Assembly: GCA_964423985.1 (NCBI GenBank)
Contig: CAYRGE010000001.1
Location: 1 to 36,992 of the forward strand
Source of the DNA: an uncultured Candidatus Saccharibacteria bacterium
Lineage (GTDB): Bacteria > Patescibacteriota > Minisyncoccia > Phycocordibacterales > CAYRGE01
Direction of reading: 5' to 3'
DNA: 36,992 bases
Shown piece after piece: positions 9,929 to 14,362 of the stretch. The notes under the pieces were generated by a model, which did no database searches, was not told the DNA's origin, and saw only the letters and a program-made list of their open reading frames with translations. Numbering within the stretch: position 1 is the stretch's first letter; each line of letters begins with the position of its first letter. The position numbers and the translations under genes were made by a program.

Positions 9929-9979
9929 ATTGTGTATTTTATTGATATGACACAGACTGTATTATATACTATAAATATA

Positions 9980-10010
9980 GTTGTATTGAAATTAAAAGAT
10001 ATAATACAAC
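9980..10010. promoter_or_regulatory. Inverted repeat overlapping a TATAAT box; candidate operator/promoter of the HTH-led cassette
   Basis: gttgtatt (9980-9987) and aatacaac (10003-10010) are perfect 8-bp inverted arms 15 nt apart. TATAAT at 10000-10005 sits across the right arm. No good -35 hexamer is visible. Confidence 0.3.
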
Positions 10011-10096
10011 CTTCATTCAATAGCTTAACCAAACACTTTTAATAAAACAAGAATAAAATAAGGTTGAATTATGAAAAGAATAAATTTGGAGAGAAA

Positions 10097-10249
10097 ATGA
10101 AAAAGATACACTTAGAAAAGGAAATGTCGCAAGACGATGTTTGCCGAGCGTTATACTTGGACAGGTCGCACATCAGCAATGTTGAAAATGGAAAACAAAA
10201 TCTTACAATTAGTGCAATGGAAGAGATCGCTAAGCACTTGATACAATAG
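10097..10249 (+). CDS. XRE-family helix-turn-helix protein (short)
   Basis: ATG at 10097 is preceded by GGAG (10088-10091); the track start at 10064 is TTG. MSQDDVCRALYLDRSHISNVENGKQNLTISAMEEIAKHL matches the HTH_3/XRE pattern (..SQ..lA..lg.srs.is..E.Gk.n.....l..ia..l). Confidence 0.75.
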   Translation: MKKIHLEKEMSQDDVCRALYLDRSHISNVENGKQNLTISAMEEIAKHLIQ

Positions 10250-10281
10250 TCTATCAATTATTAGAATAACTAAAAAATATT

Positions 10282-10446
10282 ATGAACAATAAATCAAGCA
10301 ATCAAAAACAAAAAAAGATCATAAATACTGAAGCTAGGGGAAATGACAAAATTTATGGATACATGGCAAATGTTGTGAAAAAAGCAAAAAAGGACTTAGA
10401 AAAAATCGAAGCGGAAATAGAGGGACTTGAAAAAATTAACAATTAA
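10282..10446 (+). CDS. 54-aa Lys/Glu-rich predicted helical protein (below the ORF-track cutoff)
   Basis: Hand translation gives MNNKSSNQKQKKIINTEARGNDKIYGYMANVVKKAKKDLEKIEAEIEGLEKINN*. It starts 33 nt after the HTH stop, and its TAA (10444-10446) ends 4 nt before the ATPase ATG. The tight packing suggests it is co-transcribed. Confidence 0.45.
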   Translation: MNNKSSNQKQKKIINTEARGNDKIYGYMANVVKKAKKDLEKIEAEIEGLEKINN

Positions 10447-10450
10447 AACT

Positions 10451-12136
10451 ATGGAAAATTTTGAACTTAAAAAACAAATAGAACAAGCGAGCGATCCAGA
10501 GGTTTTGAAAACTACTCTTTTTGCTTTGCTTGATAAAATAGATTTGTTGGAACAACGTCTCTCAATTGTTGATAAAAGCGGAGATGGTCAAGAGAATGTT
10601 TCTGATATTATTGCCAACAAAAGAGACAGGTTGGAAGAAATTCGTCATGGGTTGACTGAATTAAACGAAAGAATGGAAAAGCCGTATCTTGTTTCCGCAG
10701 AGCTTGAGGCAGTAAAAGAGGTTTTAGATATTTTATCTGAAGCGGGAGAATGTAATTCTGTAATTCTTGAGGGAGAGCCTGGAACAGGTAAAACACAGTG
10801 GGCATATTCTGAAGTAGGACAAGAATTGCAAGACGGAAAAGATGTTTCTCTTGTGCATGTTCGCGTTAAAGACACAATGCGTGCTCAGGATTTATTATAT
10901 AGTATTGATGATGTTCGTCGCTTGAGTGACGCACAAGCACAAGCACAGGTTCCCGACCAAATCCGTCAGGAAGCTGGCGAATGGAAACAAAAAATAATAG
11001 CTGGCGACATAAACCCAAACGAAGACAAAGAATATGGGATTTTTAAAGCAAAAATGGAAGCAATTGTTGAGTTAGGAGAAACAGCGAAAGATTTGAATTA
11101 TTTAAATTATGTTGATTTGGGTCCACTTGGTGAAGCAATTCATCAATCAGGAAAGGGACAGAGAGTATATTTAGTGATTGATGAAATTGAAAAAGGGCGT
11201 GAAGAACTGATGACAGGTATTTTAGACGAGATTGAAAACCTAACTTTCACAATTGGAGAAACTGGAACCGTGGTAAAAGGAGACAAAAAGAACATGCGAA
11301 TAGTTATTACTACAAATACAGAGGATTCTGATAAGATTCCTCCTTCATTTCGCAGGCGAAGTTTATACCACTACATAGATTATCCGAACCGAGCGGATAT
11401 GAAAAAGATTGTAGAGTTGAATTTTCCAGATATTCAAAGAGAGTTACTTGATTATACTATTTCTATTTTCTATCAATACCAAGAAAATAATGAAGTAGAG
11501 AAAAAGCCTTCTACCCCAGAGTTTTTGGCGTGGATTAGAGTTTTGAGCAAAGAATTTGACGGATCAATTCCCGACAATATTCCACATAAAGAAATCTTAT
11601 TGAAGTATCAAGAAGATATGGAATTGGATATTGGAAGAATAAATGTAGAGGCACATGAGGAAATGGAACAATCAGAAGAAGTACTTCCACATTTTGTGCA
11701 AAGAGCATTTCGTGGTGATCAAATTTATCACATTACCGACAATATAAATAATCACAATAATCAAGATAAATATTCTGCATTTTATGCAAAGCTTCAAAAT
11801 AAGGGCGTAAATTTTATGACTCCAAAATTTGGTGAGGAATATGATAATCGCTGTAGTAAGCATGTGCAGAAAGTACAAAGAAGTTTTCAGATTGTTGTGC
11901 CAGGAGTTGAACATCTTGGAAATGGTTATTACGTAATTCCTGATGATAAATTATCTTTACTTGATGAAGTTATTGATACAGAAACAAAAGTTTTATCAGC
12001 AGGACAAAATTTCTCATCCATAAAAGAAAAAAGTGGCGATGTGACGATTGGTCAAATTGAGATTGACGGATACCAACGAGAAGCGTTTATGGGGGATGAC
12101 GGTAGAGTTGTGGTAAATAAACCCTACAATCGATAA
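10451..12136 (+). CDS. MoxR/CoxD-like (AAA_5-type) AAA+ ATPase with N-terminal coiled-coil and unassigned C-terminal domain
   Basis: Walker A GEPGTGKT (nt 10772-10795), Walker B VYLVIDEIE (DE at 11180-11185), sensor-1 ITTN, and the arginine cluster PPSFRRRSLYHYIDYP typical of MoxR/AAA_5 proteins. The start is ATG 10451 or the in-frame TTG at 10427. About 170 C-terminal residues have no recognisable motif. Confidence 0.8.
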   Translation: MENFELKKQIEQASDPEVLKTTLFALLDKIDLLEQRLSIVDKSGDGQENVSDIIANKRDRLEEIRHGLTELNERMEKPYLVSAELEAVKEVLDILSEAGECNSVILEGEPGTGKTQWAYSEVGQELQDGKDVSLVHVRVKDTMRAQDLLYSIDDVRRLSDAQAQAQVPDQIRQEAGEWKQKIIAGDINPNEDKEYGIFKAKMEAIVELGETAKDLNYLNYVDLGPLGEAIHQSGKGQRVYLVIDEIEKGREELMTGILDEIENLTFTIGETGTVVKGDKKNMRIVITTNTEDSDKIPPSFRRRSLYHYIDYPNRADMKKIVELNFPDIQRELLDYTISIFYQYQENNEVEKKPSTPEFLAWIRVLSKEFDGSIPDNIPHKEILLKYQEDMELDIGRINVEAHEEMEQSEEVLPHFVQRAFRGDQIYHITDNINNHNNQDKYSAFYAKLQNKGVNFMTPKFGEEYDNRCSKHVQKVQRSFQIVVPGVEHLGNGYYVIPDDKLSLLDEVIDTETKVLSAGQNFSSIKEKSGDVTIGQIEIDGYQREAFMGDDGRVVVNKPYNR

Positions 12137-12141
12137 TAATT

Positions 12142-13920
12142 ATGAGCGAAAAATTTTTCAAAAGAGAATTTATTCCCCCAGAAGAAAGAGATTTGCGCAA
12201 ATTCAAAGGCTCTAATCTCAAAGAAGTTATTGAGTTTTTAGAAGGTGCAGATACAGAAAATATAAAGGAATATACTGGTGACAAAGAATGGAAGGAGTAT
12301 TTAGACAGGGAGGGTCAAAGTATTTTTGATGGTTTTTTGACTTTACTTCGTGAAAAAGGTGTGCGAGTTTCCACTCCAGAATGGTTGCAATTTCTTCAAG
12401 TCATAGAAAAGAAAACAACTGCAGAAGATTTGAAAAAGATCGTTGGAACAAACGAACTTTTAAATAAAGTTCGTTTGTTCGCGCAAACCACTTTAGTAAA
12501 GGACAAATCAGAAGAACTATCATTTCATGAAGCATTTGATGAATACTTTGAATTAGCGGCAAAAATATACAGTCGCGAATTGCAGGATGAAGAAGCAGAA
12601 AAAAAAGAAACAGAAGTGCAAGACAGTCGCGACAGTGGTATAGAGCCTGAAATAAAAGAACAACTTGGAATAGATGAGGTTGATGAAAATTTAGATCTAC
12701 CGGAAGGTGGAGAGCATGATGATGACGAAAAAAAGCATGGTGGAAAAGAGGATCAACACAACGACATTTTGAAGAAAGAAGATTTGGCAAAAAAGGGTGG
12801 CGGAAACAAAAAAGATGGAGAAACTGGTGAAGGAGATAAAGGTCAGCCAAGTGAGGGAAAAGGTAAAAAAGGAGAAGCTGGTCATGGTGAGGGAGACAAA
12901 GGAAAGGAGGGGGAAGGAAAAGGCGATAAGGGTGAAGTTGGAGCAGGTAAAGGAAATAAAGGCGACCCTTCTGGAATGGGTAAAGGTAGTAAAAAGGGAG
13001 CCGAAAATAACGAGTCAGGAAATCAGTCAGTACCACCAGAATCTCCCGAATCTGAACAACAAAAAGTTAGTCAAAAAGGATTTTTAGTCGGCGGCGGAAA
13101 AGGTAAATCTATTTTTGCAGAACGAGTCAATCAGCCGCATATTACTCACAGAGGCGAAAGATTAACGAAACAAGATATAAAAGACAGAAAGAAAAAAGTT
13201 GGAAAAGTTGACCGACGAATGAGATATGAAGTGAGACCAGATAAAGCAAGTATGCGAGAAGTTATTAGAAATCTTCGCAGGATTATTATGGATGTTTCTG
13301 AGGTAAAAAGTAGCGATGTTGATCTGAAAAGAACTGTTAAAAATTTTGCTCGTCGTGATTTTCGCTTTGACTATGAACGAGAAAGAGAGAAACAACCAGA
13401 AGTTGTTTTGCTTATAGATGTTGGCGGTTCTGTTAACAAGTGGAGTCCGCTGATGAAAGAGGTTGTTGAAGAAATGGCGAAAGGACTTAGTAAATTAGAA
13501 GTGTATCTTTTTCATAATAATTTATATGGATATGTTTGGAAACCAGACCCAAAAGACCTGCTTGCTTCAAGTTATGCAAAACCAAATTCTTTGATTGATT
13601 TAAAAAAAGTTGTTAAAAGAAGAAAAAAAGTAATTGTTTACGGAGATGCAGATATGTCATATTCTGAATTTGAAGGAGATTGCTGGCTACCAAGCGGGAA
13701 TGATAAATTAGTAGAAAAATTTGGAATGGGCGGAGAAGAAAGTCTAAAATTTATAAAAAAGAAAGCAGACTCGGTTGTATGGATAAATCCAATATTTGCA
13801 AAAGAGTGGGATAAGCAAGATGATTCTAGAGCAATTGAAGCTATCAATGATATTATACCTATGCACGATTTAACTGTCGGTGGAGTTGAAGACGCAATAA
13901 AGGAATTAATGAAAAAGTAA
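12142..13920 (+). CDS. CoxE-type von Willebrand factor A (VWA) protein with long disordered linker
   Basis: The ATG lies 5 nt after the ATPase stop. The N-terminal FLTLLREKGVRVSTPEWLQFLQVI resembles the CoxE-family N-terminal helix pair. The C-terminal VDLKRTVKNF..PEVVLLIDVGGSV..VYLFHN..VIVYGDADM..VVWINP matches the VWA_CoxE layout. The MIDAS position reads DVGGS rather than DxSxS. Confidence 0.8.
   Translation: MSEKFFKREFIPPEERDLRKFKGSNLKEVIEFLEGADTENIKEYTGDKEWKEYLDREGQSIFDGFLTLLREKGVRVSTPEWLQFLQVIEKKTTAEDLKKIVGTNELLNKVRLFAQTTLVKDKSEELSFHEAFDEYFELAAKIYSRELQDEEAEKKETEVQDSRDSGIEPEIKEQLGIDEVDENLDLPEGGEHDDDEKKHGGKEDQHNDILKKEDLAKKGGGNKKDGETGEGDKGQPSEGKGKKGEAGHGEGDKGKEGEGKGDKGEVGAGKGNKGDPSGMGKGSKKGAENNESGNQSVPPESPESEQQKVSQKGFLVGGGKGKSIFAERVNQPHITHRGERLTKQDIKDRKKKVGKVDRRMRYEVRPDKASMREVIRNLRRIIMDVSEVKSSDVDLKRTVKNFARRDFRFDYEREREKQPEVVLLIDVGGSVNKWSPLMKEVVEEMAKGLSKLEVYLFHNNLYGYVWKPDPKDLLASSYAKPNSLIDLKKVVKRRKKVIVYGDADMSYSEFEGDCWLPSGNDKLVEKFGMGGEESLKFIKKKADSVVWINPIFAKEWDKQDDSRAIEAINDIIPMHDLTVGGVEDAIKELMKK
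12826..13005 (+). repeat. Three imperfect 60-nt (20-aa) in-frame tandem repeats inside the VWA gene
   Basis: GEGDKGQPSEGKGKKGEAGH / GEGDKGKEGEGKGDKGEVGA / GKGNKGDPSGMGKGSKKGAE. At DNA level ggtgaaggagataaagg (12826) recurs as ggtgagggagacaaagg (12886) and ggtaaaggaaataaagg (12946). Confidence 0.8.
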
Positions 13921-13921
13921 A

Positions 13922-14191
13922 GGCTACGATGTTGTTTTTAAAAATGTAGATTGGAAGAAAAAATTATCACAACAGACTTTCGAGATATCTGAAGACTCAG
14001 TGATTTTTGGTTTCTCTCTAGGTGCTGTTCTTTCATGGTTAGTGGCTCAAGATTATAAATGTAAACAAATAATACTTGCTTCTATGACACCTCAATACTC
14101 TTGAGAAGATGGAGAAACAAAAAAAGCTCTGATTGATTTACTAGGTAATCCTTCCCCAAAAAGAACTGGTTTTAAAAAAGTCTTAAGATAA
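13922..14191 (+). pseudogene. Truncated alpha/beta-hydrolase gene remnant
   Basis: The frame has no start codon and begins immediately after the VWA stop. It reads GYDVVFKNVDW...SVIFGFSLGAVLSWLVAQ with a nucleophile elbow G-F-S-L-G (14009-14023). There is an in-frame TGA at 14102-14104 and TAA at 14189-14191. The same frame stays open again to TAG at 14303-14305. Confidence 0.6.
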
Positions 14192-14362
14192 CAAATTAAA
14201 AGAGTACAGAATTTATTAAAAGGAATACCTAGAAAAACCTTAACTCGGTGTACACCTTACGAAGTTTTTGATAAACTAATGAATAAGCGCTCGGTTAGAG
14301 ATTAGAAACTAAGCAATAAGAGTATCTTACAATATAAAATTAGTAAATAATAAATAAATAGT

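Follow-up and report, generated by a model that had tools for sequence, protein, structure and literature searches.

The window analysed here, a stretch of 36,992 nucleotides from contig CAYRGE010000001.1 (assembly GCA_964423985.1) of an uncultured Candidatus Saccharibacteria bacterium, contains at positions 10451 to 12136 a gene for an AAA+ ATPase of the MoxR class. The ATPase is the middle gene of a conserved cassette, in which it is preceded by a small helical protein and followed by a CoxE-type von Willebrand factor A (VWA) protein. The three genes, with an elaborated MoxR motor at the centre, make up a self-contained, horizontally acquired cassette, and we put at somewhat better than an even chance the reading that it has a role in remodelling for which the C-terminal tail of the ATPase serves as recognition module. 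The cassette is probably a mobile remodelling switch. MoxR-VWA pairs are widespread, and their mechanism is understood for few, each with one client enzyme. The cassette is a compact version of such a pair that moves between bacteria with genomes of about 0.5 Mb, and what is new in it is a structural domain (the tail) and an apparently unique enlargement of an element that lines the pore; it also has a micro-protein as an obligatory component.

The cassette is an insertion at the junction between dprA and serS. In 14 of 15 same-order genomes these genes lie divergently side by side, with 52-309 bp between them; the distance in the window is 4,434 bp, and the cassette occupies it. The inserted segment and its genes, with protein lengths in amino acids (aa) and with small genes counted as open reading frames (ORFs), are as follows.

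9929 to 14362, no strand assigned: the whole inserted segment between dprA and serS, delimited by comparison with same-order relatives.
10064 to 10249, plus strand: gene for an XRE-type helix-turn-helix protein of 61 aa (Pfam HTH_3, E = 5.7e-8).
10282 to 10446, plus strand: gene for the small 54-aa protein, the first of the cassette, below the default ORF-length cut-off.
10451 to 12136, plus strand: AAA+ ATPase gene, 561 aa from the ATG at 10451, with an open frame.
12142 to 13920, plus strand: gene for the CoxE-type VWA partner, 592 aa (Pfam VWA_CoxE, E = 5.6e-6, at 26.4 bits equal to the cut-off).

The ATPase was found in one of 41 same-order genomes. Across a phylum sample of 401 genomes, the only orthologue was that of the window's own genome, which has a single copy of the cassette, and one weak partial match was obtained elsewhere; the cassette occurs in fewer than 1% of the species of the phylum. 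Copies of the long form of the ATPase (as opposed to the short sister proteins described below) number at least about seven among GTDB species representatives, and their hosts among the matches listed are Falkowbacteria, Paceibacterota, Saccharibacteria, WWE3, Portnoybacteria and one metagenome-assembled genome labelled Gammaproteobacteria. Compared with their counterparts in a Falkowbacteria genome, the cassette proteins reach 69% identity (ATPase) and 66% (VWA protein), against 35% for SerRS and 46% for TopA; with respect to a Saccharibacteria genome, the ATPase is 60% identical, against 31-34% for SerRS and 46% for TopA. Judged by these sequences, the cassette has been horizontally transferred, since its similarity across classes lies far above that of housekeeping proteins.

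An orthologous cassette lies just downstream of rpsJ-rplC (L179, 7001-10149) in a genome that reads TGA as Trp, which shows transfer across lineages with different genetic codes. At the dprA/serS junction itself, a same-order relative carries an unrelated 2.5-kb insert (L181, G003:C4:7500-10300) with a 581-aa PolX/PHP-like gene and a 205-aa ORF, so this junction seems to accept cargo repeatedly. No convincing att-like direct repeats were found flanking the insertion in the window.

The ATPase is 561 aa long when translated from the ATG at 10451. A length of 569 aa, given in the preliminary description of this DNA, belongs to an alternative TTG start at 10427; homologues begin at the Met of MENFE, and the TTG start was not accepted because it overlaps the conserved upstream 54-aa ORF and is unused by homologues. 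The parts of the gene are listed below; structural statements on the cassette proteins refer throughout to predicted models, for which the predicted local distance difference test score (pLDDT) and the predicted template modelling score (pTM) are given.

10484 to 10684, plus strand: N-terminal heptad-patterned helical hairpin, residues 12-78 (AlphaFold2 helices 16-43 and 48-76).
10772 to 10795, plus strand: Walker A motif GEPGTGKT, residues 108-115.
10937 to 11071, plus strand: two-helix insert, residues 163-207, placed by alignment gaps against the Clostridioides difficile short form and the relative P0129.
11168 to 11188, plus strand: Walker B motif YLVIDEI with D244 and E245, located by motif check and homologue alignment.
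11306 to 11359, plus strand: sensor 1 ITTN (residues 286-289) and Arg-finger segment FRRR (residues 300-303), from a 67-sequence alignment.
11390 to 11623, plus strand: AAA+ lid, residues 314-391, with model helices at 314-390; short sister proteins stop here.
11624 to 11686, plus strand: acidic flexible linker, residues 392-412 (pLDDT 43-60).
11687 to 12133, plus strand: C-terminal alpha/beta domain, residues 413-561, about 150 aa, confidently modelled and of no recognised fold.

The catalytic motifs read earlier from the sequence (GEPGTGKT, DEIE, TTN and RRR) were all located in the 561-aa ORF and are intact. Walker A, Walker B, sensor 1 and the Arg finger are invariant or nearly so among 67 homologues, with T287, N289, R302 and R303 invariant in all 67, and the lid holds an invariant K351-x-P353-S354-x-x-E357 motif. 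The AlphaFold2 model of the full-length protein, made with the 67 homologues (pLDDT 81, pTM 0.73), places helices 16-43 and 48-76 ahead of a Rossmann-type AAA+ core at about 100-310, which is followed by the lid, the linker and the C-terminal alpha/beta domain. A Foldseek search of the PDB with this model returned NorQ first (9qh6, E = 3e-10, TM-score about 0.7 normalised on NorQ), and further matches were CbbQ2 and cso-CbbQ (6l1q, 5c3c), McrB, Lon, dynein and RavA-type MoxR structures. The protein was rightly described as having a single AAA+ module of the MoxR class; its nearest structures are NorQ and CbbQ.

At the level of sequence profiles, the protein scores 31 bits against Pfam AAA_5 (cut-off 22), and the aligned part is residues 240-303 only; in orthologues, residues 104-303 cover the entire 139-position model and are about 60 residues longer than it. 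A sequence search of the PDB with the whole ATPase returned only ClpC1, marginally. Short strands at 265-267 and 274-276 in the model precede sensor 1 and, by their order, are a candidate pre-sensor-1 beta-hairpin. As modelled, the motor is intact and of the MoxR class, and its AAA+ core and lid are complete and resemble those of NorQ and CbbQ.

The elaboration of this motor consists of three additions that are conserved and specific to the lineage, and it is best seen against the sister family. An exhaustive profile search retrieved 6,066 related representatives, and the nearest large group consists of ATPases of 270-340 aa from Clostridia, Actinomycetota, Desulfosporosinus and others, which match the query in two stretches. 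These short sister ATPases are 31-33% identical over residues 72-391 and have neither the N-terminal head nor the insert nor the tail. The C. difficile short form (273 aa) aligns over residues 72-391 (33% identity, E = 7e-40), interrupted by a single clean gap at about 163-208, and terminates exactly at the end of the lid (about 391).

The head is the N-terminal hairpin, which is missing from the short sister proteins in pairwise alignment. The heptad periodicity of its two helices is such that 35 and 0 of 2000 shuffles, respectively, match the observed score. The helix at 83-97 does not belong to this addition because it already aligns to the short sister proteins. Of the N-terminal coiled coil of about 100 aa that had been proposed, the helical character with significant heptads therefore stands, but the length comes down to about 65 aa (residues 12-78).

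The insert lies between beta2 and Walker B and measures 45-55 aa. Its helical nature, suggested earlier, is reproduced in the model (helices 169-183 and 193-212), in which it is bracketed by short strands at 150-152 and 221-223. P0129, a 526-aa relative that has both head and tail, lacks this element, and its alignment has the same gap, of 45 residues at 163-207. The distance from the Walker A Lys to the Walker B Asp is 130 residues (120-131 in 114 of 115 close homologues), whereas the mode in the sister family is 75-76, with most members at 70-110. The wide spacing of the two motifs that had been noted earlier is confirmed, and the insert lies above the range of the nearest relatives. P168, W178, F198 and K213 are strongly conserved in the insert, as are Y150, D153, R157, L158, D160 and Y220 in its flanks. 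A coiled coil was rejected for this element, which shows no heptad periodicity (1799 of 2000 shuffles score as well) and is helical only. In NorQ, the helix-2 insert is a long beta-hairpin that lines the N-terminal pore (PMC13036017); from the model we infer that the insert of the window's ATPase is an expansion at the tip of this helix-2 insert. A maximum-likelihood tree of the core separates all insert-bearing proteins from the rest by a branch with 100/98 support, and forms with the tail and without the insert branch between this group and the short forms.

The tail is a domain in its own right. Residues 408-561 modelled alone reach a pLDDT of 93.6 and a pTM of 0.84, with mixed helices and at least 10 strands. 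The domain matches no Pfam family, and Foldseek finds no match for it at E <= 1e-3 in the PDB or BFVD. This agrees with the preliminary description, which had recognised no motif in residues of about 400-569: the region holds a separate, modular domain at 413-561 that neither Pfam nor Foldseek assigns. An ordinary lid joined to a known accessory domain, together with an insert of normal length, would have spoken against this description; the lid covers residues 314-391 only, and the tail corresponds to no accessory domain that is known. An RnlA or TBP-like fold was considered and set aside as too weak (best Foldseek E = 6.7e-3 with a TM-score of 0.26 for RnlA; TM-score about 0.3 for TBP-like folds). 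A beta-grasp fold of the EAP/MAP (EapH1) kind was likewise not adopted and is a weak lead only, with a PDB profile match to staphylococcal EAP/MAP domains of E = 1.3e-4 over about 70 positions and EAP not in the Foldseek top 50.

An alignment of the tail from 16 loci, including a distant clade at about 20% identity, shows G15, L41, F48, F72, G127 and G144 to be invariant and A12, N43, T50 and V107 to be nearly so. Gly, Leu and Phe make up most of the conserved positions; N43 and T50 are the only polar ones, and neither is of a catalytic type. Identity at the same loci is 31-50% for the tail and 52-69% for the whole protein, so that the tail diverges faster than the core. It has been lost or replaced at least three times within the insert-bearing group on the core tree, and some orthologues have a HEAT-like or acidic tail instead of the alpha/beta domain. 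A hidden Markov model scan of 18,532 ORFs from 177 loci found the domain only on long-form ATPases. A stand-alone or otherwise fused tail was sought by a word-indexed search with residues 408-561, which returned orthologues only. A profile search did yield five short proteins. One of them comes from a split ATPase gene; the remaining four have their start at an internal Met of the domain, three of them on contigs shorter than 3 kb, and look like miscalled fragments.

Given its lack of conserved catalytic-type residues, its faster change relative to the core and its exchangeability, the tail most likely serves in recognition or as an adaptor, linking ATP-driven remodelling to a target or signal. 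The tail had been proposed as the sensor or effector part of the protein. It is a separate, modular domain, and without conserved catalytic-type residues an enzymatic effector is unlikely.

Both partners of the ATPase are conserved with it. An ORF of 46-67 aa lies directly upstream of the ATPase at 28 of 29 long-form loci (loci were retrieved by pattern, and their counts are lower bounds). These small ORFs are of two sequence types that track two ATPase clades, and in both a hydrophobic-I/L-N motif is followed by a heptad helix. The 54-aa protein of the window has a basic N-terminus with a (V/I)(I/L)N motif ahead of its heptad helix, whose score is matched by 10 of 2000 shuffles; it has tblastn matches in L090, L091 and L092 and no Pfam match. 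A homologue of the VWA protein stands immediately downstream of nearly every retrieved ATPase locus, long-form and short-form. The window's VWA protein comprises an N-terminal helical region, a charged low-complexity linker of about 170 aa and a C-terminal VWA domain with which it ends, and similarity across loci spans the helical region (about 56-137) and the VWA domain. Its first metal-ion-dependent adhesion site (MIDAS) loop, at about residue 426, reads D-V-G-G-S, with the first Ser missing; the closest relatives have D-V-G-G-P, and the family, including the clostridial and actinobacterial sisters, D-x-G-G-S. Going by these sequences, the family as a whole probably departs from canonical DxSxS metal coordination. 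Neither the tail (residues 413-561) nor the small ORF (10282-10446) is annotated; both are family-level features that deserve names.

By analogy with NorQD (PMC13036017) and with the way MoxR-vWA pairs work in general, as reviewed in PMC7159879, the ATPase would form a hexameric ring, and the VWA partner would dock on the N-terminal face and the pore of that ring. In the predicted structure, the insert and the N-terminal hairpin would build a helical collar around the pore entrance, to which the VWA partner, the small protein by its heptad helix, or both would bind; the N-terminal hairpin may be what that helix pairs with. With its linker flexible, the tail would be able to reach a target.

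Several observations weigh against this picture of a mobile remodelling cassette. The placement of the insert at the helix-2 insert and the idea of a collar rest on the order of secondary-structure elements in the model. Without the first Ser of its MIDAS loop, the VWA partner may not capture peptides in the canonical metal-dependent way. No recognisable effector domain was found anywhere in the cassette, and a search of PADLOC-DB 2.0 returned only TRIP13 for the ATPase (E = 0.0088, on the P-loop) and nothing for the VWA protein. No long-form copies were found in IMG/VR, INPHARED or PLSDB, which yielded short MoxR relatives only. Several cassette loci lie amid ordinary housekeeping genes. A phage or plasmid origin was considered and rejected on the absence of the long form from these same three collections, and PHROGs gave nothing specific.

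Comparison with described MoxR-VWA systems places the cassette near several of them. NorQ-NorD is a MoxR AAA+/VWA pair that inserts non-haem iron into nitric oxide reductase (PMC13036017; PDB 9qh4-9qhg). The cassette resembles it in that no structure matches the AAA+ core of the predicted model better than NorQ (Foldseek), in the adjacent gene for a VWA partner with a long linker and, by analogy, in the expected ring with helix-2 inserts lining the N-terminal pore. It differs in that identity to NorQ and CbbQ is 14-17% in structural alignments and in that NorQ, at about 260 aa, is without the N-terminal coiled coil, the helical expansion of the helix-2 insert and the C-terminal domain; moreover, a third, small protein belongs to the window's unit, and its genome has no nitric oxide reductase. 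CoxD-CoxE (an APE2220-type MoxR with a CoxE VWA protein, for maturation of aerobic CO dehydrogenase), together with the widespread short pairs annotated as MoxR family ATPase and CoxE-VWA, is the sister family at the level of sequence. The VWA partner is homologous to theirs in the N-terminal helical region and the VWA domain, including the D-x-G-G-S loop. However, the sister ATPases are 270-340 aa long with a Lys-to-Asp distance of 75-76 and no head, insert or tail, sequence similarity revealed no upstream small gene in them (no systematic survey was made), and the window's genome has no molybdenum (Mo) hydroxylase. The RuBisCO activase CbbQ-CbbO is likewise a pair of a MoxR-class ATPase and a VWA protein, with CbbQ among the top fold matches, but the window's ATPase has no CbbQ_C Pfam match and its genome no RuBisCO.

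Membership in the CGN subfamily (CbbQ/GvpN/NorQ) was rejected, as there was no match to CbbQ_C, NorQ or GvpN in Pfam or NCBIfam and the clients are absent. The best NCBIfam matches of the ATPase and the VWA protein are MadB and MadC (NF047784 and NF047783). Membership in these families was rejected too, at 43.3 and 14 bits against cut-offs of 475 and 600, with MadB aligned at positions 122-262 of 298 only; a literature search for a Mad system found only unrelated MadB proteins.

A further comparison is with the MoxR-vWA ternary conflict systems (VMAP, iSTAND, beta-propeller and FtsH types; Kaur et al., 2020, PMC7159879). CoxD-CoxE pairs have been exapted into conflict systems, and N- and C-terminal extensions are said to occur in VMAP-type MoxRs (PMC7159879). 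The cassette shares with the ternary systems a CoxD/CoxE-derived pair with a third component and a patchy, island-like distribution. In contrast to them, its third component is a helical protein of 46-67 aa, no effector is fused to the VWA protein, and the family is found mainly in Patescibacteria, not in multicellular bacteria. No Pfam match to bpMoxR, VMAP or iSTAND components was found in the cassette, and membership in the VMAP, iSTAND, beta-propeller or FtsH ternary systems was rejected, given the 54-aa helical third gene, the VWA protein without fused effector and the missing bpMoxR. By sequence, the cassette is outside the VMAP, iSTAND, beta-propeller, MadBC and CGN definitions.

What the cassette acts on is narrowed by the genome around it. 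Genes for the RuBisCO large subunit (PF00016) and Mo-hydroxylase (PF02738) are absent from the 95%-complete, 537-kb genome, as are those for haem-copper oxidase or nitric oxide reductase (PF00115); control genomes were positive for all three. No Mo-hydroxylase or CO dehydrogenase gene occurs in any neighbourhood examined. With the classical MoxR clients absent and the cassette being mobile accessory cargo, the target is likelier to lie in conflict or stress (phage, mobile element or host interaction) than in maturation of a housekeeping enzyme. A conflict or stress module, favoured by mobility and context, is a tentative assignment that falls short of an even chance. If it is true, the cassette would be one of few such systems known in Patescibacteria and a tractable three-protein model for the rewiring of MoxR-VWA switches.

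A more specific form of this idea is defence against phages or mobile elements, in which the tail or the VWA protein senses an invader and the ATPase unfolds or activates a lethal or protective factor, possibly the small basic protein. In a sample of about 15 informative loci, which is small, the cassette is often beside integrases, restriction-modification or toxin-antitoxin genes. The neighbours of an orthologue 87% identical to the window's (L169) are HinfI, HNH, methyltransferase, KilA-N, AAA_13 and MazE genes; other loci have integrases and Fic, a serine recombinase and a Toprim protein, or recombinases, rve and Hypoth_Ymh, and a Zeta toxin gene adjoins one more. A BatA-type MoxR-DUF58-VWA operon also occurs among the neighbours at other loci. 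About 5 of 13 loci have restriction-modification, toxin-antitoxin, Abi-like and integrase genes nearby, three loci carry an XRE regulator, the modular tail changes faster than the core, the distribution is patchy with horizontal transfer and island-like insertion, and conflict systems derived from CoxD and CoxE provide a precedent (PMC7159879). Against defence stand the lack of an effector domain, of a PADLOC match and of Pfam bpMoxR, VMAP or iSTAND components, the single copy per genome here and a suggestive context in under half of the loci, and we regard it as doubtful. The framing of the ATPase as part of a conflict system, put forward in the preliminary description, accordingly keeps circumstantial support from insertion, patchy distribution, horizontal transfer and mobility or defence neighbours, but not from PADLOC.

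A mobile ternary conflict system borne mainly by Patescibacteria, in which the tail, with its new fold, is the sensor of invader or host, the enlarged pore collar handles the small protein as switch or effector and the VWA protein has a degenerate MIDAS, is a speculative possibility of about the same standing. Ultra-small epibiotic bacteria would then possess their own module for defence or host interaction.

It is unlikely that the cassette is a maturation chaperone or metal insertase dedicated to one host enzyme, on the model of NorQD, CoxDE or CbbQO, which would remodel this enzyme by bringing a cofactor in or taking an inhibitor out and bind it through the tail. Every biochemically characterised MoxR-VWA pair acts in this way (PMC13036017, PMC7159879), the closest structures are NorQ and CbbQ, the partner is of CoxE type, and some loci lie amid housekeeping genes. 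On the other hand, no conserved client gene stands beside the cassette, whose neighbours differ at every locus; RuBisCO, Mo-hydroxylase and haem-copper oxidase are missing from the genome; and the cassette is absent from more than 99% of related species and is inserted into an otherwise conserved junction. If such a chaperone were nonetheless the answer, the tail would point to a new client. A function for a mobile element itself (maintenance, transfer or addiction, with no direct host benefit) is very improbable, for although integrases, recombinases and a Toprim primase-like gene flank the cassette in L171, L172 and L003, no mobility gene accompanies it in the window and at several other loci, it has no flanking att-like direct repeats, and viral and plasmid collections hold no copies.

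The remaining observations concern the edges of the inserted segment and the relatives of its genes. The XRE-type gene that heads the segment is an optional companion of the cassette, found at the same position in L169 and L183 and absent from most other loci. Upstream of it, at 9958-10008, lies an imperfect 17-nt inverted repeat (82% complementary, with a 17-nt spacer) that overlaps promoter-like hexamers and could be a candidate operator. At the other end, a simple scan found no intrinsic terminator after the VWA gene, and a frame interrupted by stops runs between the VWA stop codon and serS (13922-14305); to judge from its sequence, it probably belongs to the inserted segment. The copy at a locus of the distant clade, L183 (3714-5240), looks decayed, since its ATPase is in two pieces, a gene of 387 aa and 79 aa of the C-terminal domain; upstream, it still has an HTH_3 gene and the small gene, of 62 aa. 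Among the short forms, the pair of ATPase and CoxE-VWA genes on the C. difficile chromosome (L030, 5980-11600) adjoins an IS605 OrfB/TnpB-like gene and lies directly upstream of a CspB-prodomain/subtilase gene (a germination protease of the cspBA type), and a link of the sister family to spore germination is possible.

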